Notes: generated by a model from the letters alone, not told the origin. 64,000 bases of DNA from an uncultured Actinomycetes bacterium (GCA_963815405.1 CAWFGR010000005.1:431447-495446), one strand, 5' to 3'; positions 1 to 64,000 are shown, counted from the first letter of the stretch. A program made the numbers and translations.

Positions 1-13
1 AGGTCCACGCCTG

Positions 14-664
14 ATGGCGGTCTCCCGCGCCCAGGCGGCGGCCGACAAGCGCCGCGCCGATCCTCGACGCCGCCGTGCGCGTGTTCGCCCGCCAGGGCTT
101 CCACACCTGCCGCGTCTCGGACATCGCCGACGAGGCGGGGGTCGCCTACGGCCTCGTCTACCACTACTTCGACTCCAAGGACGAGATCCTCGACACGCTC
201 TTCCTCGAGCGCTGGGACGTCATGCTCGCGGCGATCGGCGAGATCGACCGCCGCGAGCGAGATCCCGCCGCGCGAGAAGCTGCTACGCGATCGCCTCGTT
301 CATCGTCGACTCCTACCGCCACGACCCCGAGCTGATGAAGGTGATCATCGTCGAGGTCACGCGCGCGGCGAACTCGTTCGGCCGCACCCACCTCGCGAAG
401 ATCCGCGAGGCCTACGACGCGGATCGCGCGCGATCGTCGAGCAAGGCCCAGGCCGACGGGGACGTTCAAGTCCGACGTCACGCCCGAGTTCGCCGCGATG
501 GCCTTCTACGGCGCGATCGAGCAGGTGCTGACCGGCTGGATCTTCGACCTCCTCCCGACCGGCGAGGACGAGTTCGAGCAGGCCAAGCGCTTCGTGGTCG
601 AGACCATGTGCGGCGGGTTGGAGGCGGAGGGCGCCGGGAACGCTCCCGCGACCCGGCTGAATAG
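14..664 (+). pseudogene. TetR/AcrR family transcriptional regulator, multiply frameshifted
   Basis: The HTH 'RVFARQGFHTCRVSDIADEAGVAYGLVYHYFDSKDEIL' (ORF 75..335) continues as 'YAIASFIVDSYRHDPELMKVIIVEVTRAANSFGRTHLAKIREAYDA' in the frame of ORF 14..664. It then continues as 'MAFYGAIEQVLTGWIFDLLPTGEDEFEQAKRFVVETMCGG' in the frame of ORF 498... The 3' end is uncertain. Confidence 0.8.
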
Positions 665-680
665 ACTCGGGGACCTCCCG

Positions 681-816
681 ATGGACAACGACCTCGTCAA
701 GCGCCTCGTCTGGGCCGGGCCTGCTCGCCGGCCTCGGCGCCCTCGCCAGCATCGCCACCACGCGGGTCGCCGCTGTCATCTGGCGGCGCGTGTACGGGGA
801 GGACCCGCCGGAGTGA
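681..816 (+). pseudogene. DUF4235-like small membrane protein (one extra base near 720)
   Basis: ATG at 681 reads 'MDNDLVKRLVWAG', then after a +1 shift 'LLAGLGALASIATTRVAAVIWRRVYGEDPPE*' with TGA at 814-816. The stop overlaps the next GTG. Confidence 0.5.
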
Positions 817-1012
817 GCGACGAGACCCAGAGCACCAGCGAAGCCGCCGCGGTCCTCCCGGAGGTCGAGGGACACCCCACCGGCGCCGAGCGCGCGTATG
901 ACCGCGGCGCGCTCGAGCAGCCCGGCTTCGCCGAGCAGCATCCCGAGGCCCTCGTCGGCGCCGCCTTCGTCGGCGGCATCGTCCTCGCACAACTGATCGA
1001 AGCGCCGTGGCG
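813..1012 (+). CDS. hypothetical small protein with C-terminal hydrophobic segment
   Basis: GTG at 813 overlaps the preceding stop. The reading is 'VSDETQSTSEAAAVLPEVEGHPTGAERAYDRGALEQPGFAEQHPEALVGAAFVGGIVLAQLI'. The end is not resolved, probably because of a frameshift. Confidence 0.3.
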
Positions 1013-1468
1013 ACTGATCCCGAGACAACGTCAACGGCGGGCTCGCCGGCGCGGTCTCGGAGGTCTCCGAGCGCGCGTCCGTGCTCGTCCGCGAGGAGAT
1101 CGAGCTCGCCAAGGCCGAGGTCTCCGAGAAGGTCACCAAGCTCGTCCGCGGCGCGGTGGTCGGCATCGCCGCCGGCATCTTCGTGGTCGTCGGCCTGCTC
1201 TTCCTGCTCCACGCGCCGCCTGGGGCCTCTACACGGCGTTCTTCGACGAGGTCTACCTCGGCTACCTGATGGTCGCGGGCGTGCTCTTCCTGCTCGCCGC
1301 GCTCGCCGGCTGGCTCGCCGCCGCTGGCTTCAAGGGCGGCTCCCCGCCCACGCCGAAGATGGCGATCGAGGAGGCCAAGCTCATCAAGGAGACCTCTCCT
1401 CGCCGAGCGCGGCGGCCGAGGCCGAGCGCGCCGACGCGGACCGCATCCGCGCGGAGCGCCTGCGCTGA
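1007..1468 (+). pseudogene. holin-X / phage-holin-family-type membrane protein, frameshifted
   Basis: 'VLVREEIELAKAEVSEKVTKLVRGAVVGIAAGIFVVVGLLFLLHA' (ORF 1081..1269) continues as 'LYTAFFDEVYLGYLMVAGVLFLLAALAGWLAAAGFKGGSPPTPKMAIEEAKLIKET' in another frame. The tail is '..AAEAERADADRIRAERLR*', and TGA at 1466-1468 overlaps the next ATG. Confidence 0.6.
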
Positions 1469-1698
1469 TGCCGACCGGAGAGCGCAGCGCCGAGGAGATC
1501 CGCGACTCGATCGAGCGCAACCGCCGCGAGCTCGCGCGTCTCGGTCCGGCACCTCCAGCTCGAGGTCCACCGCGCCACCGACTGGCGCTCCTTCGTGCGC
1601 CAGAACCGCCCGCAGGCGATCGCCGGCGCGGCGATCGCGGGCTTCGTGATCGGCGGCGGGATCGCCGCGCTCACGGGCCGCCTGTTCCGCCGCGGCTA
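1468..1698 (+). pseudogene. DUF3618-like membrane protein, frameshifted
   Basis: 'MPTGERSAEEIRDSIERNRRELA' shifts to 'LEVHRATDWRSFVRQNRPQAIAGAAIAGFVIGGGIAALTGRLFRRG*' (TAG at 1696-1698). Confidence 0.55.
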
Positions 1699-2576
1699 GC
1701 GAAACAGCGAGGCGGGGCCGCCGCCGACCCCGAGCAGGCCGGGGCCCACGTGGGTGCCGATCACGGGCCCGATCTCCGAGACCAAGACCGGCTCGGTGCC
1801 GAAGATCTCGCGCCCGCGCTCGACGAGCAGCTCGGCGTGCTCGGGATGCCTGGATGTGCTGGACCACCCAGCCGTCGGCGCCGTCGTCCTTGCGCTCCGC
1901 GCATGTAACTCGACCATGCGCTCGAACGCGCGGCCGGACGTGCGCACGCGCTCGACCGGCGTGATCTCGCGCCTCGCAGCGTGAGGATCGGCTTGATCCG
2001 CAGCGCGGACCCAGCCAGGCCTGGGCGGCGCCGATGCGCCCGCCCCGGCGCAGGAACTCGAGCGTGTCGACGCGAACCAGATCCGCGTCGCCTCGCGGGC
2101 CTCCTCGGCCCGGCCGCGACGGCCTCGCCGTCGGCGCCGCCGCGCGCCGCGGCCGCGGCCGCCAGCGCGATCAGCCCCAGCCCACCGCACGCGGTCTCCG
2201 AGTCGATCACCTCGATCCGCTCGTCGCGGCCCTCCGCGCGAGCTGGTCCTTGGCCTGGCAGGGCCGAGTCGATACGTGCCGGAGATCCCGGCCGAGATGT
2301 GGATCGAGACGATGTCGCGCCCGGCGTCCAGCAGCGGCTCGTAGACCTCGAGGAAGTCGCCGATCGAGGGCTGCGAGGTGGTCGGCAGCGGCTCGGCGCG
2401 TGCGCAGATGCTCGTAGTAGGCGTCGAAGTCGGGCAGGTCGGACTCGCGGTCGTGGCGGCCCTCCCAGTGGACGTAGAGGCTGACCAGATGGATGTCGTT
2501 GGCGGCCGACCAGCTCGCGCGGCAGATAGTGCGTGGTGTCGGTGACGACCGCGACCGGAGGCCATCGGCGTGGCAC
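1696..2576 (-). pseudogene. DegV family (fatty-acid-binding) protein, multiply frameshifted
   Basis: Fragments lie in three frames: 'VAVVTDTTHYLPRELV', 'SIGDFLEVYEPLLDAGRDIVSIHISAGISGTY', 'RIEVIDSETACGGLGLIALAAAAAARGG', 'ITPVERVRTSGRAFERMVE' and 'HPEHAELLVERGREIFGTEPVLVSEIGPVIGTHVGPGLLGVGG'. Confidence 0.8.
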
Positions 2577-2590
2577 CCTACACTCCGCCC

Positions 2591-3644
2591 GTGGGCAAGA
2601 CCCTGGTCACCGGAGCGACCGGCTTCGTCGGCTCGCACGTCGCGCGGGCGCTGCTCGACCGCGGCGACGAGGTGCGCGTGCTGGTGCGGCCCAGCTCGAA
2701 GGCCGAGAACCTCGACGGCCTGGAGTACGACGTCGCCAAGCGGCGACATCAACGAGCCGCGCGCCATGCGCCGAGCCCTGCGGGGCGTCGACCGGGTCTT
2801 CCACGTCGCCGGCCTGACGTCGCTGCGCGCGAGCGCCGAGAAGCTCCACGCGATCAACGTCGAGGGCACGCGCAACGTGCTCGAGGAGTGCCTGCGGGCC
2901 GGGTGTCGAGCGCGTCGTCTACACCTCGTCGGTGGCGGCGATCGGCCCCGCGCCGCCAGGGGGAGACCGCCGACGAGCGCCAGCACTACCCGGCGCGCGG
3001 CTGAGCATCCCCTACGTCGACGCCAAGCACGAGGCCGAGGTCGAGGCGCTGCGCTTGGCCGCGCTCGGGCTGCCGGTCGTGATCGTCAACCCCGCCCACG
3101 TCCTCGGCCGCGGCGACGTGCACCGCTCCTCGACCGAGTTCGTGCGCCGCTTCCTGCTGCGCCGGATCCCCGCCTACGTGGACGGCGCGCTCAACGTCGT
3201 CGACGTCGGCGACGTCGCGCGCGGCCACCTGCTCGCCGACGAGAAGGGGGACGTCGGGCGAGCGCTACATCCTCGGCAACCGCAACTACACCTTCGACCG
3301 CCTGTTCGCCGACCTCGGCGCGCATCTCGGGCGTCGAGCCGCCGGCGCTGAAGGCTGCCGCTACGCCGTGGCGCTCGCCTTCGCCGAGGCGGCCGAGCGG
3401 CTCCCCGGCCGGCCGCCCGATGCACCACCGATCGAGGTCCGCGCCTCCAGCCAGTGGTGGACGTACCGCAACACCAAGGCCAAGCGCGAGCTGGGCTTCA
3501 AGCCCTCGCCGCACGAGGAGACCGTCGAGGCGACACGATGGAGTGGTACCGCGAGCGCGAGGGGATCGCTTCTCCCGGGCGGGCACGGCCCAGCCGCTGC
3601 CGCTGCGGCCGGCGGGTTCGGTGATCAAGCGCGCGGGCGACTGA
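2591..3644 (+). pseudogene. NAD-dependent epimerase/dehydratase (HpnA/dihydroflavonol-reductase-like), multiply frameshifted
   Basis: The Rossmann motif 'GKTLVTGATGFVGSHVARALLDRGDEVRVLVRP' opens the gene. Later fragments are 'RALRGVDRVFHVAGLTSLRASAEKLHAINVEGTRNVLEECLRAG', 'YVDAKHEAEVEALRLAALGLPVVIVNPAHVLG', 'NVVDVGDVARGHLLADEKG' and 'WTYRNTKAKRELGFKPSPHEETVE'. These lie across at least 4 frame changes. The start could instead be GTG 2570. Confidence 0.8.
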
Positions 3645-3689
3645 CGGGCCGGATGGTCCTCTGAGGGCGCTCGCTAAGCTGCGCGCCTC

Positions 3690-3964
3690 GTGAACGAGCC
3701 CCAGGCCCTCCCGCCCGCCACGCTGTATCGCTGCATCACCCCGACGAACGTGCTCTGCCCGTGCGGCAAGGTCGCGCGCCGGCTGCACGAGCCGGGATCG
3801 AGTACGAGGAGATCCGCGTGCCGATGCGCAAGACGCGGCGGGCCGAGGTCATCGACCTCACGGGGCAGAACATCGTGCCCGTGCTGCTGCACGAGGGCGA
3901 GGCGATCCACGACTCGAAGCGGATCGTCGAGTACCTGGACAGCATCGACGGGAAGGCGGCCTGA
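3690..3964 (+). pseudogene. glutaredoxin / GST-N-terminal-like thioredoxin-fold protein (one frameshift ~3792)
   Basis: 'ATLYRCITPTNVLCPCGKVARRLHE' continues after a shift as 'GIEYEEIRVPMRKTRRAEVIDLTGQNIVPVLLHEGEAIHDSKRIVEYLDSIDGKAA*'. Confidence 0.55.
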
Positions 3965-4188
3965 TGGCGACGAAGTCACGTGTGGGACGGGCGCGCGGCG
4001 CCGTGAAGGCGATCACGCCGCTGGCCGTGAGCGCCAAGGCGTGGTGGGACGGGCTCTCCGAGAAGGAGAAGGCCCGCTATCGCGAGCAGGCGGCGAGGGC
4101 GATCCGCCAGGCGCAGCAGCTCGGCCAGGCCGGGATCGACATGGCGAAGTCGGCCGCCGGCGGCGGCAAGGGCCGCAAGAAGCGCTAG
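3964..4188 (+). CDS. hypothetical small basic protein
   Basis: Intact 74-aa ORF whose ATG overlaps the preceding TGA (ATGA). No recognisable domain. Confidence 0.4.
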   Translation: MATKSRVGRARGAVKAITPLAVSAKAWWDGLSEKEKARYREQAARAIRQAQQLGQAGIDMAKSAAGGGKGRKKR

Positions 4189-5116
4189 CGCAGGGCCGGG
4201 TCGACCACCGGCTTGCGCGCCTCCCCGCGTGAGCCGCGCGCGAGGGCGTCCTCGAGGCCGTCGAGCCCGATCGTCTCGCCCGCGAACCCGCGCCAGTCGA
4301 CGGCGCCCTCGGCGAGCAGCGCGAGCGCCCGGTCCACCTCGGCGCGGTCGTGGTGGAAGGCGCCGCGCACGTCGAGCTCGTCGTAGTGCAGCGGGCCGGG
4401 CGGGAGCGCGACGTCGTGGTGGCCCGGGCAGCCGCCGACGAGCACGACGACGCCGCCGGGCGCGGCCGCGCTCACCGCGGCGCGCCAGGCCTCGGGGCGG
4501 CCGATGGCCTCGAACACGAGCGGCGGCCGCGCCAGGCGTCTCGGTCGCCCGCGCGCCCAGCGTCTCGGCCTGGGCCCGGCGCTCCGCGTGGCGGTCGGCG
4601 ACCGTGACCGTCCGGCCCTCGGCGACGAGCAGACGGGCGAGCATCAGGCCGATGGTGCCTCCGCCGAGCACGCCGACCGGGTCGCCCGTCGCCGCCGCGC
4701 GCGACCGCGTGCAGCGCCGCCGCGAGCGGCTCGGCCATCGCGGCTCCCGCCGCCGGCAGCCCCTCGGGATCGGGTGCAGCGCCGCCGCCGGCGCGCCGAT
4801 CAGCTCCGCGAAGCCGCCGAGCACCCACGCCGGGTCCCGGCAGATCTGCGCCCGGCCCGCGGCACAGGGCGCGCACGCGCCGCACGCGACCGAGTCTCCG
4901 ACCAGCACGCGCTCGCCGGTGTCGAGGCGCACCCCCGCCGTCTCGTGGCCGAAGCGCGCCGGGTAGGCGCCGAGCGCCGGATGCCCGTGCCGCCACATCT
5001 TCACGTCGGTCCCGCACGCGGTGGCCGCCTCGACGCGCGACGACCACCCCGCCCTCGGGCTCGCGCACCTCGTCGACCCGCAGGTCGCCCGGCGCGTGGA
5101 GGAGCGCCGCCCTCAC
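4185..5116 (-). pseudogene. zinc-binding medium-chain alcohol dehydrogenase, multiply frameshifted
   Basis: Fragments are 'LLHAPGDLRVDEVREPEGG', 'KMWRHGHPALGAYPARFGHETAGV..VGDSVACGACAPCAAGRAQICRDPAWVLGGFAELI', 'GVLGGGTIGLMLARLLVAEGRTVTVADRHAERRAQAETLGA' and the C-terminal ORF 4185..4517. GTG at 5116 overlaps the stop of the upstream ADH. Confidence 0.75.
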
Positions 5117-6079
5117 GGCAGGACGACCGCCTTGAGCGCCTCGCCGCTGCGCTGGAGCTCGAGCGCCCGCCCGGTCTCGTCGAGCCCCAGGCGGTGGGTG
5201 ACCAGGGGCGCCAGGTCCACGCGGCCCGACGCGACCAGGTCGCGCGCGGCGCGCATGTCGCGCGGCATCGGCGGAGTAGCTGGCGGTGATCGTCAGCTCG
5301 CCGGCGAAGACGCGCTCGCCCGTCGATCGGCAGCTCCGTGGCCGGCTCCGGCGGGGCGTAGAGGCACAGCTCGCCGCCGGGGGCGAGCGCCTCGGCCGCG
5401 GCGGCGATCGCGTCCGGCTTCGGCGTGCAGACGATCGCCACGTCGACGTGCTCGTTGCCGTGGTGCTCGGCGCCCCAGGCCTCGGCGAGCGCCCGGCGGT
5501 CCTCGCGCGGCTCGCGCACCCAGACCGCGTCGACGGCGCGGGCGTGGGCCGCGGCGACGTGCAGGAGGCCCGATGGCGCCGGCGCCCACGACAAGCAGGC
5601 TGTCGCCGGCGCGCAGGCCGGCGCGGTCCTGGGCGCGCAGGACGCAGGCGAGCGGCTCGATGAACGTGGCGAGCGCCGGGTCCAGGCCGTCCAGCGGCAG
5701 CAGCTCGTCCACCAGCTCGGCCGGGACCCGCACCAGCTCGGCGAAGCCGCCGGGATCGAGCCCGACGGCGCGGAAGCGCTCGCACAGCGTCTCGTGGCCC
5801 CGCCGGCAGCGCCGGCACTCGCCGCACGGCGCGTGGTGGTGGATCGCAACCCGGTCGCCGGGCGCGACGACCTCGACGCGCGCCGCCGATCGCGCAGCAC
5901 CTCGCCGGCCGGCTCGTGGCCGAGCACGGCCGGCAGCTTGCGCGCGACGTACCACGGCAGGACGTCAGAGCCGCACACGCCGCAGGCGAGCATGCGGCAG
6001 ACGACCTCGCCCGGCCCGGCCTCGGGGTCCGCAACGTCCTCGATGCGGACCTCCTCCAGCGAGAGCGAGCGCGCGACCC

Positions 6080-6083
<4 letters not shown>
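5113..6083 (-). pseudogene. zinc-binding alcohol dehydrogenase (threonine/sorbitol-dehydrogenase-like), multiply frameshifted
   Basis: Fragments are 'MRVARSLSLEEVRIEDVADPEAGPGEVVCRMLACGVCGSDVLPWYVARKLPAVLGHEPAGEV', 'VAPGDRVAIHHHAPCGECRRCRRGHETLCERFRAVGLDPGGFAELVRVPA' and 'LELQRSGEALKAVVLP*'. Confidence 0.75.
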
Positions 6084-7110
<1,027 letters not shown>

Positions 7111-8403: not shown

Positions 8404-9674
8404 CCCGCTCGGTTGCGGGTAGGTGCGCCGCCCTTGCGGCGCTGATTCTGTCGCTCGCCGGCTGCGGCGGCGACTCCAAGAAGCCTGAGCGGACGACGGC
8501 GACCACCCCGCCGACGACCGAGACCACGCCGAAGGCGCCCAGCTCGCTCGCCGTCGGCCTCACGGAGAACAACGCGAACCTGCTGTGGACGCCGAAGGGC
8601 AAGCCCCAGCTCGCGCCGCCCGTCGACCACGCGCGCGCCCAGCTCGACAAGCTCAACCCGCGCTACCTGCGCCTGGTCATCGATTGGTCCGCGGCCCAGC
8701 CCAGCCAGGGCGCCCAGCCCAACTGGCAGATCTTCGCCAACGGCTGCCTGCGCGACCAGCAGCCCTGCGTGGGGTTTCAGGGCGTGCGCGAGCAGCTGCG
8801 CGCGATCGCCTCGCGCCAGGAGGAGGGCAAGGGCACGCCCGACGTGCTGATCGTCTTCTCGCGCACGCCCGCGTGGGCCGCGCGCCCGCCGAGCGGCTGC
8901 GAGCGCCCCGACACCCAGCCCTTCGCCCGCGCGCCGCGCGACGACGCGCTGGACGCCTACCGGCAGGCGATCGTCTCGCTCGCCACCGAGGCCGAGCACG
9001 ACGGGGCGCGGATCACGTACTGGTCGCCGTGGAACGAGCCGAACCACCCGAGCCAGCTCAGCCCGCAGCGCTCGGGCTGCGCGCGCACCGACCGCGCCCT
9101 CGCGCCGGCCGCCTACGCGAAGCTCGCCAAGGCGATGAGCCAGGCGCTGGAGGACGTGCCGGGCGAGCAGAAGATGGTGCTCGGCGAGCTTGCCGCGTTT
9201 CGCAAGCCGCGGCGCGATGGGCGCCGGGGTGGGGGAGTTCATCGACGCGCTGCCCAAGAGCGTCGCGTGCAACGCCGCAGCGTGGGGGCAGCACAGCTAC
9301 GTCGGCGGCGAGGCGGTGGTCGACACGCTCGAGCGAGGCCGTCACGGCGAAGAACTGCGGCGCGGACGCACCGCACATCTGGATCACCGAGACCGGAGTG
9401 GGGGCCGCGCACGCCGGCTCGAAGCGCTCGCACGATCCGGCCGCGCTGCGCCTGGGCTGCCGCCAGCTCGACGCCCAGCTCGGCGAGTGGTACCGCGACC
9501 CGCGCGTGGACGTCGCCTTCCAGTACAGCTTCCGCGAGGACAACCTGTTCCCGGTCGGCCTGGTGAGCACGGCGCTGGCGAGGACTTCCCGGAGCTCGAA
9601 GGAGTGGCAGGCGTGGGGCGGGAAGCGCAAGCCGCGACGGGCCGGAGCCGAAGCTCGCGCAGGCGTGCCGGTAG
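8403..9674 (+). pseudogene. secreted lipoprotein with TIM-barrel glycoside-hydrolase-like core, frameshifted in its 3' third
   Basis: The lipobox 'AALILSLAGCGGD' is followed by a Thr/Pro linker and then 'LNPRYLRLVIDWSAAQP..ITYWSPWNEPNHP' (GH5-like WNEPN). Later parts, such as 'IWITETGVGAAH' and 'VDVAFQYSFREDNLFPVGLVS', are in other frames. The start codon is not resolved. Confidence 0.5.
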
Positions 9675-9675
9675 C

Positions 9676-14176: not shown

Positions 14177-14177
14177 G

Positions 14178-15420: not shown

Positions 15421-15439
15421 GTGCCGGCCGACATCGAAG

Positions 15440-51741: not shown

Positions 51742-51792
51742 CGGGCGCTGAGGCCACTCGTTAGACTGGCGTTCCGGAAGGAGGTCGGTCGC

Positions 51793-52315: not shown

Positions 52316-52500
52316 CCTGAGACCCGCCTGGGACGCCGCAGCCGCAAGCGCAGTGTCGCGACGCGAGGGCCGCCGCCGCGCCGCGGCGCCGGCGCGCGCC
52401 GCCCGCCCCCGCCGCGCAGGCGCCGCGCCCGCGGCGGCGCTCGCGCCTGGACGAGTCGCCGCCCGCGCCGTGGGGCTCGTTCCCGCTGGTCGAGCTGTGC

Positions 52501-53276: not shown

Positions 53277-53321
53277 GCGAGCCCCCGGCCTAACCCCTGT
53301 GGCCGCGCGGGTTGGTGGGAC

Positions 53322-53702: not shown

Positions 53703-54084
53703 AAAACGAACCTCCAGGTCGTCCGGCGAGTCTCGCGCGGACGTGCTCGGCATTGTGCGGATACCCGTCCACGTCTTCGCGCTGGGGCAAGGGCGGGCAA
53801 CGGGAGACGAACCCAGCGGCGGTCGCGCCCTGCAAACGACCGCTCGGCAATCCCTCGAAGACCCTCCTCCCCGTCGGCGCGAACGCGCTTCCGGTGAGCG
53901 GAGAAACTACGACAGCGCCGCTGGCAAGGTCAACGAAATGGCAACTTCGCCTGCCGCTAAGAGCGGACTATTTGTCTGACCCGATCCTTGTCCTGATCTG
54001 GACAAGCGAACGTCCATGTTCGTGGTTCTTCAACCCTCCGCAAACCGGTTCGCGCCGTGCCTGAGCACGTTGCGGGGGTGAGCG

Positions 54085-55349: not shown

Positions 55350-55367
55350 GTAGGGTCCGCCGTCTCA

Positions 55368-56546
55368 ATGGCGCTCGACATCGTCCCGGTCGCCTCGCGG
55401 CGCGACCTGAACACCTTCATCAAGCTGCCGTGGCGGCTCTATCGTAACGAGCCGCACTGGGTCGCCCCGCTCATCTCCGAGCGCAGGAAGTTCCTGGACC
55501 GCAGCCGCAACCCGTTCTTCCGGCACGCCGAGGCCGAGTACTTCCTCGCCATGCGCGACGGCCGGGCCGTCGGGCGCATCACCGCTCACCTCGATCGCAA
55601 CTTCAACGAGTTCCAGGGCAACGACTGGGGCATGTTCGGCTTCTTCGAGTGCGAGAACGACCCCGAGGCCGCCGGCGCGCTGCTCGCGGCGGCCGAGGAC
55701 TGGCTGCGCGTGCGCGGCCGCGACCGCATGGTCGGCCCGATGGACTTCTCCACCAACGACGAGTGCGGGATCCTCATCGAGGGCCACGACCGCGACCCGC
55801 TGATCCTCTCGCCCTGGACGTTCCCCTACTACGCCGACCTGCTCGAGGGCGCGGGCCTGGAGAAGGCGATGGACCTCCTGATGTGGGAGCTGCACATCAC
55901 CGGCCGCGAGAACGTGCACCCGATGATCTGGCGGATCGCCGAGGAGGTCGAGACCAAGCACGGCATCACGGTGCGCTCGATGAACAAGCGCGACATCCAG
56001 GCCGAGGTCACGCGCTTCCTCGAGGTCTACAACGCGGCCTGGGAGCGCAACTGGGGCTTCGTCCCGCTCACCGAGGAGGAGGTCCGCCACTACGCGAAGG
56101 ACCTCAAGCCGATCCTCGACGAGAACTGGGCCTACATCGCCGAGCGCGACGGGGAGATCATCGGCGCGGCGCTGACGCTGCCCGACTTCAACCAGGTGCT
56201 CTCGCATCTGAACGGGCGCCTGCTGCCCTTTGGCTGGATCAAGGCGCTCTACTGGCGCCGCAAGATCGACCGGGTGCGGGTCTTCGCGCTGGGCGTCAAG
56301 CCCGATTACCAGCACACCGGGGTGGCCGCCGCCTTCTACAAGCGCCACTTCGACACCGCCGAGGTCACGCCCCAGAAGTGGGGCGAGATGGGCTGGATCC
56401 TCGAGACCAACAAGGCGATGAACCGGGCGATGGAGGGCATGGGGGGCAAGGTCGTACGGCGCTTTCGGATCTACGGCAAGGACCTCGACGGGGCCGGCGA
56501 GCCCGCCCTGCGCGGCGGTCGCGGCCGACCGCCGCGACGAGGTCTA
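55368..56546 (+). CDS. large (~390 aa) GNAT-superfamily N-acyltransferase-like protein; C-terminal stop probably displaced by a late frameshift
   Basis: ATG at 55368 lies 18 nt from the divergent synthase start. The reading 'FIKLPWRLYRNEPHWVAPLISERRKFLDRSRNPFFRHAEAEYFLAMRDGRAVGRITAHLD...FALGVKPDYQHTGVAAAFYKRHF..GWILETNKAMNRAMEGMGGKVVRRFRIYGKDL' is intact. The in-frame reading never stops, and TAG at 56544-56546 lies in a neighbouring frame. Confidence 0.7.
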
Positions 56547-56559
56547 GACTCCTCCGCTC

Positions 56560-56868
56560 GTGTCCGAGAGTCCCGACACCACCGCCATCGAGGCCGTCCC
56601 GGTCAACGGCGAGGTGCGCCCGATCGAGCCCGCTGCGCAGCACGGAACGGCCCTCGCGCTGCGCACCCCGGCGCAGGCCGCCGTCGTGGCGGTCACCGGC
56701 TTCGTGGCCGGCGCCGCGACCCTCGCGCTGGTGCACCGGCGCCGGACGCGCCGCGCGCTGACCCGCTCCGCGGGTCGCCGGCGCACGCTCGGGCGCAAGC
56801 GCGGCGAGGTCATCTCGGTCGCCGGCACCCGTTCCTTCCTGGTCGACGTCCACCTGCTGAACCGGTAG
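56560..56868 (+). CDS. small single-TM protein, Arg-rich C-terminus
   Basis: Intact 102-aa ORF starting at GTG 56560. The TM segment is 'AAVVAVTGFVAGAATLALV', followed by 'HRRRTRRALTRSAGRRRTLGRKRG'. Confidence 0.45.
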   Translation: MSESPDTTAIEAVPVNGEVRPIEPAAQHGTALALRTPAQAAVVAVTGFVAGAATLALVHRRRTRRALTRSAGRRRTLGRKRGEVISVAGTRSFLVDVHLLNR

Positions 56869-57772
56869 TGGCGCTCCCGCGCCGCGCCGTCGAGGTGCGC
56901 CGGGAGGTGCGCCCGCCCTGGCCGCTGCGGCTCGCGCTCCAGAACGGCATGGACGGCGTCCAGCGCCGCCGCGGCAGCGTCCTTGAGCGGCTGCTCACCG
57001 TCGGCGGCGACCCCGTCGTGGTGCGCGTCGCCCAGCCCTCCGGCAGCGAGGTGCTCTTTGGGGCATGGGCCGACACTCGCGACGCGGCCGAGCACGCGAT
57101 CGACCGCATGCGCTTTGCCCTGGGCGTCGACGACGACCTGCGCGCCTTCCACGACCGCTTCCGCGGCGACCCGCTGCTGGGACGCCTCCTGCGCGCGAAC
57201 CCGCTGCTGCGTGTCCGCCGGCGCCCCGAGCCCTTCGAGGCGCTGATGTGGGCGATCACCGAGCAGCTGATCGAGTTCTCGCGCGCGGCGGAGATTCAGC
57301 GCCGCCTGGTCTCGCGCCTGGGCCGCCGCTGCCCGGAGACCGGGCTGCGCGAGCCCCCGTCCGCGGCGCGGGTGGCGGCGCAGGCCCCGGCGCTGCTGCA
57401 GTCCCTCGACCTCTCCGGCGGGCGCTCGCTGGCGCTGATCCGCGCGGCGCGCGAGGTGGCGGCCGGGCGCATCGACCTGCACGCTGCCGACCACGAGCGC
57501 GCCTGGGCGCGTCTGCGGGCCATTCCGGGCATCGGGGCCTGGACGGTCGAGGTGCTCGCCGTCTCCGGCCAGGGGCGCTACGACCAGCCCATGGCGGGCG
57601 ACCTCGGACTGCTCAAGCTGGTGGGGCGCCTGCGCACCGGCGACCCGCGGGCCGTGGGCGAGGAGGACGAGGTGCGTGAGCTGCTGGCGCGCTATGACCC
57701 GTGGGCCGGCCTGGCCGCGACCTACCTGCTGCACGCCCGGCTGGACGCGCTGCCGCTGCCGGCGGCGCCTAG
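56868..57772 (+). CDS. HhH-GPD DNA glycosylase (AlkA-like); 3' end uncertain
   Basis: GTG at 56868 overlaps the preceding TAG. The reading includes 'RRRPEPFEALMWAITEQLIEFSRAAEIQRRLV' and 'LRAIPGIGAWTVEVLAVSGQGRYDQPMAGDLGLLKLV'. The frame stays open to 58124 and would overlap the convergent gene, so the end is set at a nearby out-of-frame TAG. Confidence 0.65.
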
Positions 57773-58793
57773 ATCCCCTGGCCCGGCAGGAACTCGTTCG
57801 TCAGCGCGTCCGCGGCTGCGCGGCGGCTGCTTGAGCAGGTCGTTGCTCGTACATCCAGCGGCCGTAGGACTCCCACGCGCCCTGGGTCCTGGCAGCCGAA
57901 CGGCTGCCGGTCGTGCGGGGAAGAAGACGGGGATCGTCGCCTTGACGCTCGCAAGCTGGAGCTTGCGGTCGAGGTCGGGGTTGGCCTTCACGAGCGGCGC
58001 CACGGCCTTTGCGGGGTCGTCGCGGGCGCCTCGTAGCCGGCCGTCAGCGCGCGCAGGAAGCGCCGATCTTGCGCGCCGTCGTGGCGAGGTGTGCTTTCGC
58101 GCGACCACGACGAGCTCGTCGTAGGTGGGTACGCCCGCGCTTGTCCACGGGGATGATCGTCGGGGCGCGGGCCGCGCAGGCGCAGCTCGACGCCCTCGTA
58201 GTTCCAGAAGCCGCCCAGGGTGGCGTCGACCTTGCGAGAGCATCGCGGGCACGAGGTTGAAGCCGACGTTGGTCTCCTCCACCGAGGTCGGATCGGCGCC
58301 CGCCTTGGCAGGATCGTCTTCAGGTAGGCCGACTGGTAGGGGATGCCGGCGGTGCCGACGTTCTTGCCGCGAGATCGGCGGGCGTGCGGATCTCCTTGTC
58401 GCGAGGGAGATGATCGAGGTCAGCGGCGCCTGGACGATGGCGCCAACGGAGACCAGGCTCAGCGCCCTTGTCGCGGGCCAGCAGCAGCTCGGGCTCATAG
58501 GAGATGGCGAGGTCGGCCTTGCCCGCGGCGAGCAGCTTCAGCGGCGCCGAGGGGTCCGAGGGCGCGCGGAGTGACGTCGAGGCCGGCCGGCGCGAAGTCG
58601 CCGTCGGCGATCGCCGCGTAGATGCCGACGTGGTCGGCGTTGGGAAAGTAGTCGAGCACGAGCTCGACGGGTCGGCGCTGCCGCGGGGCCAGCTCGAGTC
58701 CTTCTTCTCGCCGCAGGCGGCGAGCCCGAGCGCGAGCAGCGCGGCGGCGAGCAGCGCGAGGATCCTCGCGTTCCTCGTCGCTGTTCGGCCCAC
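57769..58793 (-). pseudogene. NMT1/THI5-like ABC substrate-binding lipoprotein (ThiY-like), many frameshifts
   Basis: GTG at 58793 gives 'GRTATRNARILALLAAALLALGLAACG'. Further fragments are 'ELVLDYFPNADHVGIYAAIADGDFAPAGLDV', 'APSDPSAPLKLLAAGKADLAISYEPELLLARDKGA', 'LVSVGAIVQAPLTSIISL' and the C-terminal '..AADALTNEFLPGQGI*'. Confidence 0.65.
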
Positions 58794-59504
58794 GGGACGG
58801 CGCGGCGCTCCGTCAGGGTCAGGGCCCCGAAGAGGACGATGGCGAGCCCGGCGAGGAGACCCGGCGGCGTAGGCGCGCGCGGTCTCGAGCTGCGGGATGG
58901 CCTGGAGCATGAGGTGGCCCAGGCCGTCGCTCGAGCCGGCCTGCTCGGCGAGCACCGCGCCGATCACGGCCACCGTGACGGCGATCTTGGCGCCGCTGAA
59001 GAGCGCCGGCAGCGCGGACGGGCGCCTCCACGCGCCGGAAGGACTGCCAGCGCGAGGCGTCGAGTGTGCGCATGAGCTTGAGCAGTCGGGGTCCACCCGC
59101 CAGAGCCCGTCGAGCGCCGAGACGACGACGGGGAAGAAGCAGATCAGCGCGATGATCGCCAGCTTGGGCGCGATGTCGTAGCCCAGCCAGGCGACGAGCA
59201 GCGGGGCGACGATCACGATCGGGATCGTCTGGGAGGCCACGAGCAGCGGGTAGACGGCGCGCCGCAGGGTGCGCGAGGCGTGGATGGCCGCGGCGAGGAC
59301 CAGCGCGGCGACCAGCGCGGCGAGGATCCCGAGCAGGACCTCCCAGGCGGTGACGGTGAGGTTGTGCCAGAGGATGGCGCGATCGTCGTAGAGCGCCGAG
59401 GCGATCTGGCTCGGCGCCGGCAGCAGGAAGTCGTCGACGCCGCCGAGGTCGGCGAAGAGCTCCCAGCCGCCGAGCAGCACGAGCAGGAGTCCGACCGCCA
59501 GCAT
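58790..59504 (-). pseudogene. ABC transporter permease (nitrate/sulfonate/HMP type, ThiX-like), 2-3 frameshifts in the 3' half
   Basis: 'MLAVGLLLVLLGGWELFADL..LLPAPSQIASALYDDRAILWHNLTVTAWEVLLGILAALVAALVLAAAIHASRTLRRAVYPLLVASQTIPIVIVAPLLVAWLGYDIAPKLAIIALICFFPVVVSALDGL' is followed by shifted 'ALFSGAKIAVTVAVIGAVLAEQAGSSDGLGHLMLQA'. The stop is not resolved. Confidence 0.7.
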
Positions 59505-60268
59505 CAGCGCAGCGCCTCCAGGGCCTGGGCGCGCAGCGCGACGAGGTCGGCGTCGGTGCGCGAGCGCGGGCGGGGGAGGGGAACGGCGAGCTCGGCCACG
59601 ACCCGGCCCGGGCGCGGTGAGAGCACCACGACGCGGTCGCCGAGCATGAGCGCCTCCTCGACGTCGTGGGTCACGAGCAGGACGGTGCGCGGCTCGCGCG
59701 CCAGCGCGCCCGCGAGCCACGCCTGCATGTCGTGGCGGGTCATGACGTCGAGTGCCGCGAAGGGCTCGTCCAGCGCCAGCACCGGCTTGCCGGCCAGCAG
59801 CGTGCGCACGAACGCGACCCGCTGGCGCATCCCGCCGGAGAGCTCGTGCGGGCGCGCCTCCTCGAAGCCCGCGAGCCCGAACTCGGCGAAGTGGACCTCG
59901 GCGCGCTCGCGCGCCCGCCCGCGCCGGATGCCCCGGTTGCGCAGCGGCAGCGCGGCGTTGTCGAGCGCGCTCAGCCACGGGAGGAGCAGATCGCGCTGCG
60001 GCATGAAGACGGCGGGCTCGGCGACGCAGGTGCCGTCGTCGGGGCGCTGGAGGCCGCACACGAGCTCGAGCAGGGTCGACTTGCCGCAGCCACTCGGGCC
60101 CACGACGGCGAGCACCTCGCCGCGGCCGACGCGCAGGCTCAGCCCGTCGAGCGCGCGGACCGGCCCGCGCGCCGAGTCGTAGCTCCGGACCACCCGCTCG
60201 AGGCGGACGGCGTCGGTTCCCTGAACGATGTGAGGCTCCTTCTTGGGAGCCTCGAGCCTCGCCTGCAT
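59504..60268 (-). CDS. ABC transporter ATP-binding protein (ThiZ-like)
   Basis: Intact 254-aa reading from ATG 60268: 'VLAVVGPSGCGKSTLLELVCGL', 'LSGGMRQRVAFVRTLLAGKPVLALDEPFAALD' and 'LLVTHDVEEAL'. Confidence 0.85.
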   Translation of the reverse strand: MQARLEAPKKEPHIVQGTDAVRLERVVRSYDSARGPVRALDGLSLRVGRGEVLAVVGPSGCGKSTLLELVCGLQRPDDGTCVAEPAVFMPQRDLLLPWLSALDNAALPLRNRGIRRGRARERAEVHFAEFGLAGFEEARPHELSGGMRQRVAFVRTLLAGKPVLALDEPFAALDVMTRHDMQAWLAGALAREPRTVLLVTHDVEEALMLGDRVVVLSPRPGRVVAELAVPLPRPRSRTDADLVALRAQALEALR

Positions 60269-60375
60269 GCTCCCTCCGCGGGCATTACCCCACAGGTTCG
60301 AAGGGTCGAATCCGCGTCGTGGATTCCTCTCAGCCGGGCGTTGCCCCAGCCCCCCTGGTTGTCGAGGGGGCACCG
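60269..60375 (-). promoter_or_regulatory. TPP (THI-box) riboswitch leader of the ABC importer operon
   Basis: The minus-strand RNA reads ..GGGGGGCUGGGGCAACGCCCGGCUGAGAGGAAUCCACGACGCGGAUUCGACCCUUCGAACCUGUGGGGUAAUGCCCGCGGAGGGAGC-AUG. It contains the THI-box core elements GGCUGAGA, ACCCUU-GAACCUG, GGGUAAUGCCC and GCG-AGGGA. The start codon follows immediately. Confidence 0.8.
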
Positions 60376-60388
60376 TAGCATCTCGCCC

Positions 60389-61231
60389 GTGAGCTTCGAG
60401 CAGATCACCTACGACGTCGCGGACCGCGTCGCCACGGTCACGCTGAACCGCCCCGAGCGGCTGAACGCCTACACGCCGACGATGCACGGCGAGCTGGTCG
60501 CCGCCTTCGACCGCGCCGATGCCGACGACGACGTGCGAGCGGTCATCGTGACCGGCGCCGGGCGGGCCTTCTGCGCCGGCGCCGACCTCGGCGGGGGCGG
60601 GTCGACGTTCGATCGCGGCAGCGACGAGCCGCGGCGCGACAGCGGCGGCGTCCTGACGCTGCGCATCTTCGCCTCGACCAAGCCGGTGATCGCCGCCATC
60701 AACGGCCCGGCGGTCGGCATCGGAATCACGATGACCCTGCCGATGGACGTCCGGGTCGCGGCCGACGACGCGAAGATCGGCTTCGTCTTCGCCCGCCGCG
60801 GGATCGTGCCCGAGGCCTGCTCGAGCTGGTTCCTCCCGCGGGTCGTCGGGATCTCGCGGGCGATGGAGTGGGCGGCGACCGGGCGCGTCTTCTCCGCGCA
60901 GGAGGCCTTCGACGCCGGCCTCGTCCGCAGCCTGCACCCCAAGGACGAGGTCGTCGCGGCCGCCCGGGCCCTCGCCGCCGAGATCGCCGAGCACACCGCG
61001 CCGGTGTCCGTCGCGCTCACGCGCCAGCTGATGTGGCGGATGCTCGGCGCCGACCACCCGATGGTCGCCCACCGCGCCGACTCGCGGGCGATGTCGGCTC
61101 GCGGGGCCTCGGCCGACGCGCGCGAAGGCGTGACCGCGTTCCTCGAGAAGCGCGCCGCGGCCTTCACGGACCGCGTCTCCGACGGGCTCCCGGACGTCTT
61201 CCCCGACTACCAGGAGCCCGAGTTCCGCTAG
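60389..61231 (+). CDS. enoyl-CoA hydratase/isomerase (crotonase) family protein
   Basis: Intact from GTG 60389: 'VATVTLNRPERLNAYT..VRAVIVTGAGRAFCAGADL..KPVIAAINGPAVGIGITMTLPMDVRVAADDAKIGFVFARRGIVPE'. Confidence 0.85.
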   Translation: MSFEQITYDVADRVATVTLNRPERLNAYTPTMHGELVAAFDRADADDDVRAVIVTGAGRAFCAGADLGGGGSTFDRGSDEPRRDSGGVLTLRIFASTKPVIAAINGPAVGIGITMTLPMDVRVAADDAKIGFVFARRGIVPEACSSWFLPRVVGISRAMEWAATGRVFSAQEAFDAGLVRSLHPKDEVVAAARALAAEIAEHTAPVSVALTRQLMWRMLGADHPMVAHRADSRAMSARGASADAREGVTAFLEKRAAAFTDRVSDGLPDVFPDYQEPEFR

Positions 61232-61232
61232 G

Positions 61233-62666
61233 TCACGAGTACTGCGTCGGGCGCGTGAGCGCCTTGACGAACTCCTCGAGCTGATTGGTCGTCCAGCACT
61301 CGAACGCCGTGCAGTGGCGCTCGTAGGCGGCGATCACGGAGTCGCCGTAGTTCCAGTACAGGCGCGGCTCGGGGTTCAGCCAGAACGTGCGCCCGGCGCG
61401 CTCGACGATGCGGGCGAAGATGTCGGCGCGCGGGTCGCGCCCGTTGGTGCGCGCGTCGCCGAGGACGATGACGGTCGCCCGCGGGTGCAGGTCGTCGGCG
61501 ACCATGGAGAGGAACTCGGTCCACACGCGCCCGTAGTCGGTGTAGCCCGACACGTCGGCGACGCCGGCGTCGCGCCCGATCGCCTCGGAGACCGCCTTGA
61601 AGTTGCGCTCGCGCTCGAAGACGTCGGTGACCTCGGAGATCCGTTCGACGAACACGAACGAGCGCATCTTGCGAAACGAGTCGTGCAGCGCGTGCAGCAC
61701 GGAGAGGAAGAAGACGGACGCCGAGGTGACGCTGGTCGAGACGTCGCAGAGCACGTAGAGCTCGGGGCGCCGCGGCCGGCGCGGGCGGAACTTCAGCTCC
61801 ACCGGGACGCCGCCCGTCTGCAGCGACGCGCGCATCGTGCGCCGCACGTCGACGTGGGCGTGGCGCTTGCGCCCGCGAGTCTCGTGGCCCTGCGTGGCGA
61901 GGCGGCGCTTGAGCTGGGCCACGACGCGGTGCACGGCGGCGAGGTCCTGGAGCGGCCCCGACGGGAGCGCGCGGTCGAGCTCGTTCAGCGGCCGGGCGGG
62001 CGGCAGCGCCTGGGTGCGCTCGATGAGCGCGCGCTCGAGCTCGCGGCGCAGGTGCGCCTCGAACTCGCGGATGCCCTCGGGCGGCAGGCCGATCTCCTCG
62101 CCGCGCTGGGGCTCGGTCATCGGCCGGGGCTCCGAGCGCAGGCCCAGCGTGCGCCGGATGCGCTGCACGTCGACGCCGATCACGCCCGAGCCCTCGCCCT
62201 GGCGCCCGAAGGCGGCGATGGCGAGCCGGGCGAGGTCGCGCATCGCGCCCTCGTCGCCGTCGCGGATCGCCTGGGCGATCGCATCGCGCAGCGCCTCGAG
62301 GTCGAGCGACTCCGCGCCCTCTGCGCCCTCGCCCTCGGGGGCCTCGCGCACGCCGCGGCGCACGGCCTCGGCCTCGGGGGCGCGGAAGAAGAAGCGCTCG
62401 AAGATCAGCTCGAAGATGCGCCGGTCCTCCTGGGACTTGGCCAGCGTCGCGGCCAGGCCCTCGCGGAAGTCGGCGCGGTCCTCCCACGCGATCTCGCCGA
62501 GCACCGCGAAGGCGTCGAGCAGCTCGGAGGTGCCGACCGCCATCCCCTCGGCGCGCAGCGCCTCGGCGAACTCGAGCAGCCGTGCGGCGATGCCCGGCGG
62601 GCCGGCGGCGGGCAGGCCGCCGTAGACGCGGCGCGGGCCGTTACTCGGCGGCGGCGATGGGGCCAC
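61233..62666 (-). CDS. coxE: VWA-domain protein, CoxE family
   Basis: Intact 477-aa ORF: 'ELYVLCDVSTSVTSASVFFLSVLHAL..', 'ATVIVLGDARTNGRDP' and 'FWLNPEPRLYWNYGDSVIAAYERHC'. Confidence 0.8.
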   Translation of the reverse strand: MAPSPPPSNGPRRVYGGLPAAGPPGIAARLLEFAEALRAEGMAVGTSELLDAFAVLGEIAWEDRADFREGLAATLAKSQEDRRIFELIFERFFFRAPEAEAVRRGVREAPEGEGAEGAESLDLEALRDAIAQAIRDGDEGAMRDLARLAIAAFGRQGEGSGVIGVDVQRIRRTLGLRSEPRPMTEPQRGEEIGLPPEGIREFEAHLRRELERALIERTQALPPARPLNELDRALPSGPLQDLAAVHRVVAQLKRRLATQGHETRGRKRHAHVDVRRTMRASLQTGGVPVELKFRPRRPRRPELYVLCDVSTSVTSASVFFLSVLHALHDSFRKMRSFVFVERISEVTDVFERERNFKAVSEAIGRDAGVADVSGYTDYGRVWTEFLSMVADDLHPRATVIVLGDARTNGRDPRADIFARIVERAGRTFWLNPEPRLYWNYGDSVIAAYERHCTAFECWTTNQLEEFVKALTRPTQYS

Positions 62667-63558
62667 GGGCGAGCCCGGTCAGCCGCACCCCGACGCGCTC
62701 GGCGACCGTGTCGAGGTCGGTGCGGTGCTTGACGATCACGCTCATCGTCTCCCGGAAGATGTCGGCGTCGATGTCGTCGGCGCCCAGCAGCAGCAGCGTG
62801 CGCGCCCAGTCGATCGACTCCGCGATCGACGGCGGCTTCTTGAGGTCGAGCTCGCGCACCATGGCGATGATCTCGACGAGCTTGCGGGCGACCGTGTCGC
62901 TCAGCTCGGGCGTGTGGAGCTGGACGATCTGCAGCTCGTGCTCGAGCGAGGGGTAGTCCAGCCACAGGTAGAGGCAGCGGCGCTTGAGCGCCTCGGTGAG
63001 CTCGCGCGAGTTGTTGGAGGTGAGCAGGACAACGGGGTGGCTGGTGGCGTGCATCGTGCCCAGCTCGGGGATCGAGATCTGGAAGTCCGAGAGGATCTCG
63101 AGCAGCATCGCCTCGAACTCCTGGTCGGTCTTGTCGATCTCGTCGATGAGCAGGACCACCGGCTTCTCGGAGGTGATGGCGTTCAGCAGCGGGCGGGCGA
63201 GCAGGAAGTCGCCGGAGAAGATGTCGTCCTGGATGTCGGTCCAGCCGCCCCCGCCGCGCTCCTCGGACTGGATGCGCAGGAGCTGCTTGCGGTAGTTCCA
63301 CTCATACAGCGCCTTGGTCTCGTCCAGGCCCTCGTAGCACTGGAGGCGAATGAGGTCGCGCCCCAGGTAGCGGGCCAGCGCCTTGGCGAGCTCGGTCTTG
63401 CCCACGCCCGCCGGCCCCTCCACGAGCACCGGCTTGCCGAGCTTCGCGGCGAGGTAGGAGACCAGCGCGGTGGACTCGCCCGGGAGGTATCCGGTCGCGC
63501 GCAGGCCCTCGGAGACGTCGGCGACGGAGTCGGGGAGCGCGGACATGGGACCGCGCAT
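62641..63558 (-). CDS. coxD: MoxR-like AAA+ ATPase, CoxD family
   Basis: Intact 305-aa ORF: 'PVLVEGPAGVGKTELAKALARYLGRDLIRLQCYEGLDETKALYEWNY', 'VVLLIDEIDKTDQEFEAMLLEILSDFQISIPELG' and 'LLTSNNSRELTEALKRRCLY'. Confidence 0.85.
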   Translation of the reverse strand: MRGPMSALPDSVADVSEGLRATGYLPGESTALVSYLAAKLGKPVLVEGPAGVGKTELAKALARYLGRDLIRLQCYEGLDETKALYEWNYRKQLLRIQSEERGGGGWTDIQDDIFSGDFLLARPLLNAITSEKPVVLLIDEIDKTDQEFEAMLLEILSDFQISIPELGTMHATSHPVVLLTSNNSRELTEALKRRCLYLWLDYPSLEHELQIVQLHTPELSDTVARKLVEIIAMVRELDLKKPPSIAESIDWARTLLLLGADDIDADIFRETMSVIVKHRTDLDTVAERVGVRLTGLARGPIAAAE

Positions 63559-63572
63559 GATAGGACTGGCCG

Positions 63573-63788
63573 GTGCTCGGGCGGATTCCAGCGGTGGCGC
63601 TTGCGCTGGCGTCGGTCATCCCCGAGGGCGACCCGGACATCGCCCCGTTCATCGTGCTCACCGTGCTCGGGTTCTCCATCGCTGTGTTCGGCCACCTCAT
63701 CAAGTCCAACACCGTGATCGCGACGGGGATCATCCTCGTCTTCCTCGCGGTGGTCCTGATCCCGCTGATCACGCAGGGCGGGTCGTGA
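63573..63788 (+). CDS. small 2-TM membrane protein
   Basis: Intact 71-aa hydrophobic ORF. Its TGA overlaps the next GTG. Confidence 0.4.
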   Translation: MLGRIPAVALALASVIPEGDPDIAPFIVLTVLGFSIAVFGHLIKSNTVIATGIILVFLAVVLIPLITQGGS

Positions 63789-64000
63789 TCCTGCTCGCGA
63801 TCGTGGCGCGCGTGCCCGCCGAGGGCGTAACCCGCTACCAGGCCTACGAGGCGCGGGTGCTGCCCCTGCTCGCCGAGCACGGCGGGCGCCTCGAGCGCCG
63901 GCTGCGCACGCGCGACGAGCAGGTGGAGGTGCACATCGTCTCCTTCGAGTCGGCCGAGGCGCTGTCGGCGTACGTCGGGGACCCGCAGCGCGCGGAGCTC
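63785..64000 (+). CDS. hypothetical protein, 3'-truncated by the window end
   Basis: The GTG at 63785 opens 'VILLAIVARVPAEGVTRYQAYEARVLPLLAEHGGRLERRLRTRDEQVEVHIVSFESAEALSAYVGDPQRAEL', which runs off the window. Confidence 0.3.
   Translation, partial: MILLAIVARVPAEGVTRYQAYEARVLPLLAEHGGRLERRLRTRDEQVEVHIVSFESAEALSAYVGDPQRAEL

Follow-up and report, generated by a model that had tools for sequence, protein, structure and literature searches.

A mosaic of frameshift-riddled and unbroken blocks in a Solirubrobacteraceae metagenome contig, most probably a product of sequencing and assembly

How should one read a stretch of bacterial DNA in which some genes run unbroken for thousands of nucleotides, while others can be followed only by hopping from frame to frame? 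The question is raised by 64,000 nucleotides from an uncultured Actinomycetes bacterium of soil (GCA_963815405.1 CAWFGR010000005.1:431447-495446), a stretch that we call the window and in which positions are counted from the first letter. Its broken genes include metH, six mce genes with an MMPL gene, and an NMT1-type ABC importer. The window has a guanine-plus-cytosine (GC) content of 72% and zero N. Its GS-III gene (27879-30047, minus strand) has 100% identity with the public protein P0001, located on a 500,553-bp contig at NCBI and ENA; the next best match is at 92% in amino acids, on a 2.7-kb JGI contig, followed by matches at about 80% in many Solirubrobacteraceae metagenome-assembled genomes (MAGs). 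Judged by these matches, the window is a piece of a metagenome-assembled Solirubrobacteraceae (Thermoleophilia) contig. Has this bacterium lost a series of genes, or does the sequence misrepresent it? We put at roughly 0.93 the probability that the mosaic is a technical artefact of the sequencing or assembly of the contig; in the organism itself, metH, the six mce genes, the MMPL gene and the importer are most likely unbroken.

Frame breaks were detected in two ways. The reference-free method uses a codon-usage model trained on the long open reading frames (ORFs) of the window, and computes a seven-state Viterbi path, with six frames and a non-coding state. The reference-based method is a local protein-to-DNA dynamic programming alignment that permits steps of 1, 2, 4 or 5 nucleotides at a penalty. 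Its references come from three sets: gene-called proteins from 22 genome loci of relatives, three syntenic contigs recovered via homologue searches (L083-L085), and, for the mce/MMPL region, 26 JGI short-read soil contigs (L086-L111). A fourth syntenic contig, L082, was aligned too, and was excluded from the consensus because it is itself error-prone. Reference genes were filtered by codon usage or by GC at third codon positions, since raw stop-to-stop ORFs, which at high GC include off-frame and antisense ones, aligned spuriously, hopping frames even across GS-III. A consensus event is one on which at least half of the covering references agree, within 12 nucleotides and on phase. Gap counts from blastn or MAFFT are too noisy at 70-80% identity, giving 50 gaps in the clean GS-III gene; polarisation at the nucleotide level was limited to 52-64 kb, where the references are 83-90% identical, and a three-way MAFFT alignment of the window, L082 and L083 polarises the indels over 52.3-64 kb.

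The reference-based method yields 241 consensus frame-breaking events in 44.2 kb of covered sequence, and the Viterbi path makes 170 same-strand adjacent frame switches in the window, or 2.66 per kb. Applied to relatives, the path makes 0-0.7 switches per kb (8 loci), and 0-9 switches per locus (23 loci), at ordinary gene boundaries. The original prediction described the window as a mosaic of indel-riddled and clean blocks, and this is what the frameshift-aware alignment recovers: the events are clustered, and no genuine one is found in the 13.4 kb of the six claimed clean blocks that references cover. Four calls in these blocks are all at gene N-termini, where the reference ORF extends into upstream non-coding sequence, and the parts of the blocks without reference are single unbroken frames. 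The Viterbi path keeps a single frame for 1.2-2.2 kb in clean blocks, and makes a same-strand hop every 40-300 nucleotides in disrupted ones. The contrast had also been called too strong for a uniform process, rightly so: over bins of 500 nucleotides the ratio of variance to mean is 3.3 (chi-square p = 9e-20), 27 bins are empty where 4.7 are expected, and the lag-1 autocorrelation is 0.67, which together exclude a uniform process. GC content was considered as the driver and rejected: dirty bins are slightly GC-richer (0.729 vs 0.704, p = 0.0015), the association is weak, and both clean stretches at 77-79% GC and dirty ones at 70% GC occur.

Five of the blocks announced as disrupted have 8.1 events per covered kb at 14-7110, 11.7 at 14340-17390, 2.6 at 23900-26560, 10.9 at 38600-52300 and 14.6 at 57800-59100. 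The list needs amending in two respects: the blocks at 9190-10210 and 18790-19400 are lightly hit, with 3-5 events each, seen mainly by the Viterbi path, and the block at 38600-52300 has a clean gap of about 900 nucleotides inside it, at ~40950-41850. All seven of the isolated events that had been announced are found, at 7886, 8125, 10686, 31608, 38169, 54408-54412 and 55138-55140; an eighth, a single insertion at ~56511, makes that list incomplete.

Where do the blocks begin and end? Most of their edges sit within genes. In metH (23627-27184), all eight events fall in 23917-26583 (minus strand), a low-density block wholly within the gene, while the first ~600 nucleotides of the gene (26584-27184) and the last ~290 (23627-23916) are clean; the block was called against L006 at 80% identity, and up to nine of nine references agree on an event. 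The ABC permease gene (58778-59504) passes from dirty to clean at 59086. A large regulator of about 1,060 amino acids (16655-19838) has three switches, then 1,421 clean nucleotides, then four switches in 470 nucleotides. Its clean core (17483-18903, minus strand) is a single frame on the Viterbi path, without reference, and the small dirty block beside it (18904-19377, minus strand) has Viterbi switches at 18903, 18992, 19089 and 19377; a stitched translation of the regulator reads through this block.

The largest dirty block, at 38612-52366 on the plus strand, contains about 142 consensus events with a median spacing of 58 nucleotides, and spans the six mce genes (MlaD-domain), the MMPL gene and three downstream genes. 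Counts per gene are consistent over 7-20 Illumina-derived references: 12, 6-10, 10-14, 24-31, 22-23, 22-27 and 31-36. MceA has 12 events with each of seven references, and the last four ranges are those of MceD, MceE, MceF and MMPL.

The lesions themselves have a narrow spectrum. The 241 events comprise 153 of size +1, 40 of -1, 34 of +2 and 14 of -2, with no other sizes. Single-base insertions dominate, as had been claimed, though the lesions are not single-base only: 2-nucleotide events are common, and account for five of the ten deletions at 57.8-59.1 kb. In terms of net shift, +1 outnumbers -1 by 167 to 74 (p = 2e-9). The three-way alignment shows a cluster of window-specific indels at 57817-59086, 8 insertions and 10 deletions, all of 1-2 nucleotides; the longer window-specific indels in 52.3-64 kb are only intergenic or multiples of three. 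In metH, seven of the eight events are single extra bases at the nucleotide level, some lengthening a short C run and others placed between unlike bases. That the indels are not confined to homopolymers was part of the original prediction, and the longest homopolymer within 4 nucleotides of the events indeed follows the background distribution, taken at random positions of the same genes; runs of at least 4 are found at 5.3% of events and at 7.7% of background positions. Consensus errors of the homopolymer type, as from 454, Ion Torrent, polished Nanopore or HiFi data, would be concentrated in such runs, and this hypothesis is rejected.

Is the sense of the genes lost at these lesions? Protein homology resumes immediately in the shifted frame after the breaks, as anticipated, and frameshift-corrected translations regain full domains, with six MlaD/Mce proteins and one MMPL. 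In-frame stops are rare, from 0 to 2 per gene, and codon usage is preserved in the hit genes. Their amino acid identity to relatives is 55-72% for the Mce and MMPL proteins (72% for the nearest match of MceD, in JGI metagenomes) and about 80% for metH, within the range of clean genes against the same relatives. The density of lesions in dirty blocks is about 1%, or one indel per 60-120 nucleotides.

The insertion bias varies locally. In 41401-44540, MceC is deletion-biased (3 net +1 vs 9 net -1), and the adjacent MceD is insertion-biased (19 vs 5), with a Fisher p of 0.003 for a comparison that was picked post hoc; a change of source read at ~42.85 kb might account for the shift. Indel ratios of sub-blocks were also considered as a sign of single source reads: heterogeneity is marginal across the full set of segments (p = 0.043), a runs test gives no significance, and we make no claim from them.

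The evidence that we consider strongest comes from two relatives. The first, L083, is a 13.4-kb MAG contig from a short-read-style assembly, syntenic with 52.4-64 kb of the window; its genes are intact throughout and, at 83-89% nucleotide identity, it has essentially no 1-2-nucleotide indels within genes. The second, L082, is a 386-kb metagenome contig with a Flye-style name (ENA ERZ25039492, contig_33659); it is the closest relative of the window, and a mosaic in its own right. The indels specific to L082, of 1-2 nucleotides, number 23 insertions and 4 deletions; they cluster at the window equivalents of 54456-57763 and 60219-60803 and disrupt its genes for GNAT, the aminotransferase and enoyl-CoA hydratase. 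At these places the window is clean; across the binding-protein gene it is the window that is dirty and L082 that is clean. The Viterbi path of L082 has 36 switches, clustered at positions 597-3702 and 12635-15697 of its locus. No event of the window is common to any relative, whether L083 or the 26 JGI Illumina contigs, by dynamic programming or alignment, and the same genes are uninterrupted there. Lesions of one kind in two related contigs, but not in the same conserved genes, and none in a third contig, are what sequencing noise predicts, and biology does not.

In six clean genes, the numbers of window-specific and L082-specific substitutions are equal within noise: 71/76, 43/47, 20/20, 60/54, 27/34 and 53/47. 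In the dirty block of the window, counting only positions more than 6 nucleotides from any gap, 95 are window-specific and 46 are L082-specific; in the dirty aminotransferase gene of L082, 38 are window-specific and 68 L082-specific. Part of the excess consists of hidden compensating indels, with out-of-register runs at ~58060-58100. Even at face value, about 50 excess substitutions go with 18 indels or more, which is only some 3:1. Since error and real decay both predict an excess of substitutions, only the ratio of indels to substitutions is informative.

One lesion can be traced into the public record. At 56511, on the plus strand, a single G insertion, window-specific in the three-way alignment, removes the stop codon of a GNAT gene. 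It fuses this 392-amino-acid gene with an out-of-frame read-through of the next two genes, giving an ORF of 918 amino acids (55368-58124, plus strand). This ORF is found verbatim in public protein collections as P0361, from the same 500,553-bp contig, so that this lesion at least is in the deposit. The retrieved members of the cluster of P0361 are four full-length homologues of 391-396 amino acids with normal ends (...DEV/DED), and three fragments of 190-224 amino acids. An exact look-up of three N-terminal fragments (metH with two starts, and the aminotransferase) returned no match, probably through start-codon choice, and is uninformative.

How could such a sequence arise? The original prediction spoke of unpolished or gap-filled long-read sequence rather than old pseudogenes, and the indel spectrum, the edges within genes and the comparison of L082 with L083 support it. 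Under the artefact reading, the consensus of the dirty blocks would derive from very little error-prone long-read data, or would never have been effectively polished, and random indels of 1-2 nucleotides, of read-level or low-depth-consensus quality, would survive into the deposited sequence. Clean blocks would be those with enough agreeing reads, or with accurate short-read sequence, where the consensus is essentially error-free. In raw PacBio reads, insertions amount to about 8%, deletions to 3% and substitutions to 2%; raw Nanopore reads of the same generation have about 4% of each error type, and consensus-corrected long reads keep about 1% error (PMC7671305). An indel density near 1%, with an insertion bias and no dependence on homopolymers, fits the consensus of very few noisy reads, or stretches skipped by a polisher; it does not fit a well-polished Nanopore consensus, the residual errors of which are described as centred on homopolymers. 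Two variants come into question: an assembly from long reads only, uneven in depth or polishing, and a hybrid in which long-read gap-fill joins contigs made from short reads. We lean towards the first, at about 60:40, because blocks of 0.5-14 kb have the lengths of long reads and the density is graded (2.6-15 per kb), not two-level. In favour of the hybrid, the clean blocks, at 1.4-6.5 kb, are similar in size to short-read contigs from soil, and the isolated errors could mark joins.

Several points weigh against the artefact reading, or limit what supports it. Low local depth or missed polishing is a cause that we infer from the error signature only. The insertion bias fits noise of the PacBio continuous-long-read (CLR) type better than typical Nanopore consensus errors, which are prone to deletions and homopolymers, and many of the database relatives are Nanopore MAGs. 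The GC-richer dirty bins hint at a composition effect that is not fully explained. The excess of substitutions in the dirty block is also expected under relaxed selection, and is non-discriminating. Finally, the nearest sequences, at 92% in amino acids (GS-III, on the 2.7-kb contig) and 87-90% in nucleotides (L082 and L083), are not the same genome.

Could the genes be truly lost, by a real and recent block-wise pseudogenisation that took metH, MMPL, the Mce and NMT1-type importers and all the others that are hit? The lesions are present in the deposited sequence, no strictly essential gene is among those affected, relatives differ in whether they have the mce cluster, and the window-specific substitutions are also raised in a dirty block. 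However, in neutral decay substitutions normally outnumber indels many-fold, with many stop codons, and here up to 36 frameshifts in a gene go with at most one or two in-frame stops, codon usage and identity to relatives are kept, and substitutions are too few for the number of indels. Neutral decay does not predict zero-event cores beside dense flanks within genes either, nor the same lesions in different conserved genes of L082 with none in the short-read L083. An insertion-biased spectrum made exclusively of 1-2-nucleotide events is moreover the opposite of natural decay: in curated bacterial pseudogenes the ratio of insertions to deletions is about 0.76, deletions have a mean length of ~19 nucleotides, and there are about 4.6 indels per pseudogene, on a basis of 396 deletions (7,421 nucleotides in total) and 300 insertions in 151 pseudogenes (PMC6054270). 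We thus regard pseudogenisation as highly improbable. A second way for the indels to be real would be a Solirubrobacteraceae lineage with kilobase tracts of localised, insertion-biased frameshift hypermutation, for example through error-prone repair or replication. If this were true, metH, the Mce/MMPL lipid-transport cluster and an importer controlled by a thiamine pyrophosphate (TPP) riboswitch would be inactivated, with adjoining tracts untouched, by a tract-wise mutational process that has no known precedent; on the evidence we consider this very unlikely.

Two other explanations leave the genes functional. The first is that reads of several closely related strains or species were merged into one consensus, with chimeric calls by the polisher and clean sequence where one population dominates. 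This would account for blocks at the kilobase scale and for substitutions raised in a dirty block, and several Solirubrobacteraceae at 80-90% identity do occur in the same kind of samples. But such a mixture should yield mostly substitution chimeras at variable sites, not random 1-2-nucleotide indels at about 1%, and the dirty blocks hold conserved genes (metH, 80% in amino acids) as well as variable ones (mce), with no link to conservation. It is a scenario of very low probability, and one that would still be an artefact, leaving the biological conclusion unchanged. Programmed ribosomal frameshifting, or other recoding or editing, might be invoked to restore the frames in vivo, sense resuming as it does immediately after each break. 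It would have to act at about 241 sites, as many as 36 of them in one gene, shifting either forwards or backwards and by 1 or 2 nucleotides; these sites share no sequence context or slippery motif, and none is conserved in any relative. Its probability is close to nil.

If the artefact reading is correct, the value of the mosaic is that of a quality warning, not of biology, and the record deserves a quality flag. About 46% of the window, and presumably much of the 500-kb contig, would be at roughly 99% indel accuracy. Gene calls in the dirty blocks are then fragments or fusions, and automated pseudogene, metabolic and completeness inferences for the MAG would be wrong, such as 'no metH', 'no Mce transporter' or 'no thiamine-precursor uptake'. 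Public protein collections already contain one artefactual protein at least, P0361, and L082 indicates that the problem is not unique to the record of the window. Artefact and decay can be told apart without reads, by the size spectrum of the indels, the insertion bias and the different lesions of a sister assembly.

We now turn to the remaining blocks, from left to right. The first dirty block, at 60-7010, has 37 consensus events against L084 and L085, with Viterbi hops up to 7008; its genes are a TetR regulator, small membrane proteins, DegV, an NAD-epimerase, a glutaredoxin-like gene, two Zn-ADH-like genes and MtnA. It is followed by two isolated insertions of one nucleotide, each called against L001 and L085, at 7886 in a BolA-like gene (minus strand) and at 8125 in a HesB/IscA-like gene (plus strand). 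The lightly dirty block at 9207-10236 has Viterbi switches at 9207, 9333 and 10207; its reference-based events, at 9214-9636 and 10194-10236, were called against L085 and L002, which are low-identity references there. At 10686 (minus strand), an isolated frameshift in a thioredoxin-reductase-like gene was called against L085 at 82% identity, in an alignment that spans both frames, and the Viterbi path changes from frame -0 to frame -2 at 10688. The clean block at 10690-14218 has no genuine event, with a single frame over 12173-14128. The dirty block at 14373-17482, with 25 events against L001 and Viterbi switches at 16899, 17375 and 17482, covers a glycosyltransferase/membrane gene of 781 amino acids and the 3' part of the large regulator.

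After the regulator, the clean block at 19378-23916, which includes the lower-GC stretch at 20-23 kb, has no events, and its intact ORFs have cNMP-binding, ECF-sigma and GNAT domains in Pfam. This block overlaps a region of the window, 16537-23716, that is about 7.2 kb long and has less than 0.6 kb at the equivalent place in L001, L002 and L004. The region contains the large regulator, a cNMP-binding protein, an ECF sigma factor and several ORFs without Pfam match; GC falls to 62-68% at 20-23 kb, a part that the codon model labels non-coding. It may be an acquired island.

Beyond metH, two clean blocks interrupted only by the insertion at 31608 extend over 26584-38168, with no genuine event in 8.5 covered kb; they contain GS-III, amtB, glnB, PucR, Ada/AlkA, two MlaE genes and the mkl ATPase. 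The insertion at 31608 (plus strand, one nucleotide) is near the 3' end of amtB, and nine of nine references agree on it. A nitrogen-assimilation cluster is seen at 27879-33490, where GS-III, on the minus strand, is divergent from amtB, a glnB-like gene (so labelled by position and size only) and a PucR-family regulator; its synteny is kept in several Solirubrobacterales relatives. Next to it, an ORF of 727 amino acids at 32854-35037 is too long. The real coding part is 33577-35037 only, an Ada/AlkA fusion with Ada Zn-binding, AraC HTH, AlkA_N and HhH-GPD domains, and what precedes it overlaps the true PucR gene in a different frame; spurious long ORFs of this kind are typical of high-GC DNA.

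At 38169 (plus strand), an isolated insertion of one nucleotide, on which 19 of 19 references agree, lies in the Mce-associated ABC ATPase (Pfam ABC_tran), just before the large dirty block. The six mce genes of that block are missing in several close relatives: when 38500-47560 is compared with L001-L004, L007 and L020, the relatives without mce genes have the yrbE (MlaE) pair and the mkl ATPase, then MMPL directly. The genes are kept in L008, L009, L013, L015, L017 and L019, and the cluster is thus variably present in the family.

The region at 52367-57810 is mostly clean, with three single insertions (~54410, ~55139 and ~56511), according to the alignment with L083 at 81-92% identity and to the three-way alignment. 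In the last dirty block, at 57811-59086, L082 and L083 each give 15 and 3 events; the block covers the 3' end of a 321-amino-acid gene, the NMT1-type binding protein and 40% of the ABC permease. The window closes on a clean block at 59087-64000, without events against L082 and L083 at 87-96% identity, which contains the rest of the permease, an ABC ATPase, a TPP riboswitch, an enoyl-CoA hydratase, a VWA/CoxE gene and an AAA ATPase. The riboswitch, at 60254-60366 on the minus strand, is a full-length match to RF00059 with 51.7 bits and E = 1.5e-9 in a search of 301 nucleotides; the score is just below the gathering score of 54.3 bits, and a scan of the whole window at the gathering threshold missed it. 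The match is directly upstream of the operon of ABC ATPase, permease and NMT1 binding protein, and lends support to the label of thiamine-precursor importer that this operon had been given. Marks of junctions were sought across the window, which has no N runs, no tRNAs and no Rfam match at the gathering threshold.

Which known systems does the mosaic resemble? Decay in reductive evolution, as in Mycobacterium leprae or the leaf-nodule Burkholderia symbionts (PMC6054270), also produces many neighbouring frameshifted genes in which homology to intact orthologues remains visible; it differs in that the edges in the window are within genes and decay does not extend over the whole gene, as the 1.4-kb zero-event core of the regulator illustrates. 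The likeness to errors of long-read assemblies, Nanopore or PacBio CLR, is closer: there too, indels of 1-2 nucleotides split or fuse ORFs, homology goes on in another frame, the lesions are missing in short-read relatives, and they spread to public protein sets, as did the 918-amino-acid fusion. Long-read assemblies are known to leave frameshift-causing indels, notably in low-coverage metagenome bins, and such errors are measured or repaired by IDEEL-type tests and correctors such as Kastor (PMC9262707, PMC13087279, PMC12007338). Unlike a polished Nanopore consensus, with its homopolymer-centred errors, the window has insertion-biased events without homopolymer enrichment; unlike usual long-read assembly errors, its density of about 1% is closer to what corrected reads show than to a finished consensus; and unlike evenly spread errors, those of the window are limited to sharp kilobase blocks. 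Hybrid or gap-filled assemblies share with it the alternation of error-free and error-rich segments, and the size of the clean blocks, which is that of soil short-read contigs, but the window has no N runs or junction marks, and its density is graded. Patchy short-read polishing, for its part, should give much finer patches, at the scale of read length, whereas those of the window are kilobase-sized.

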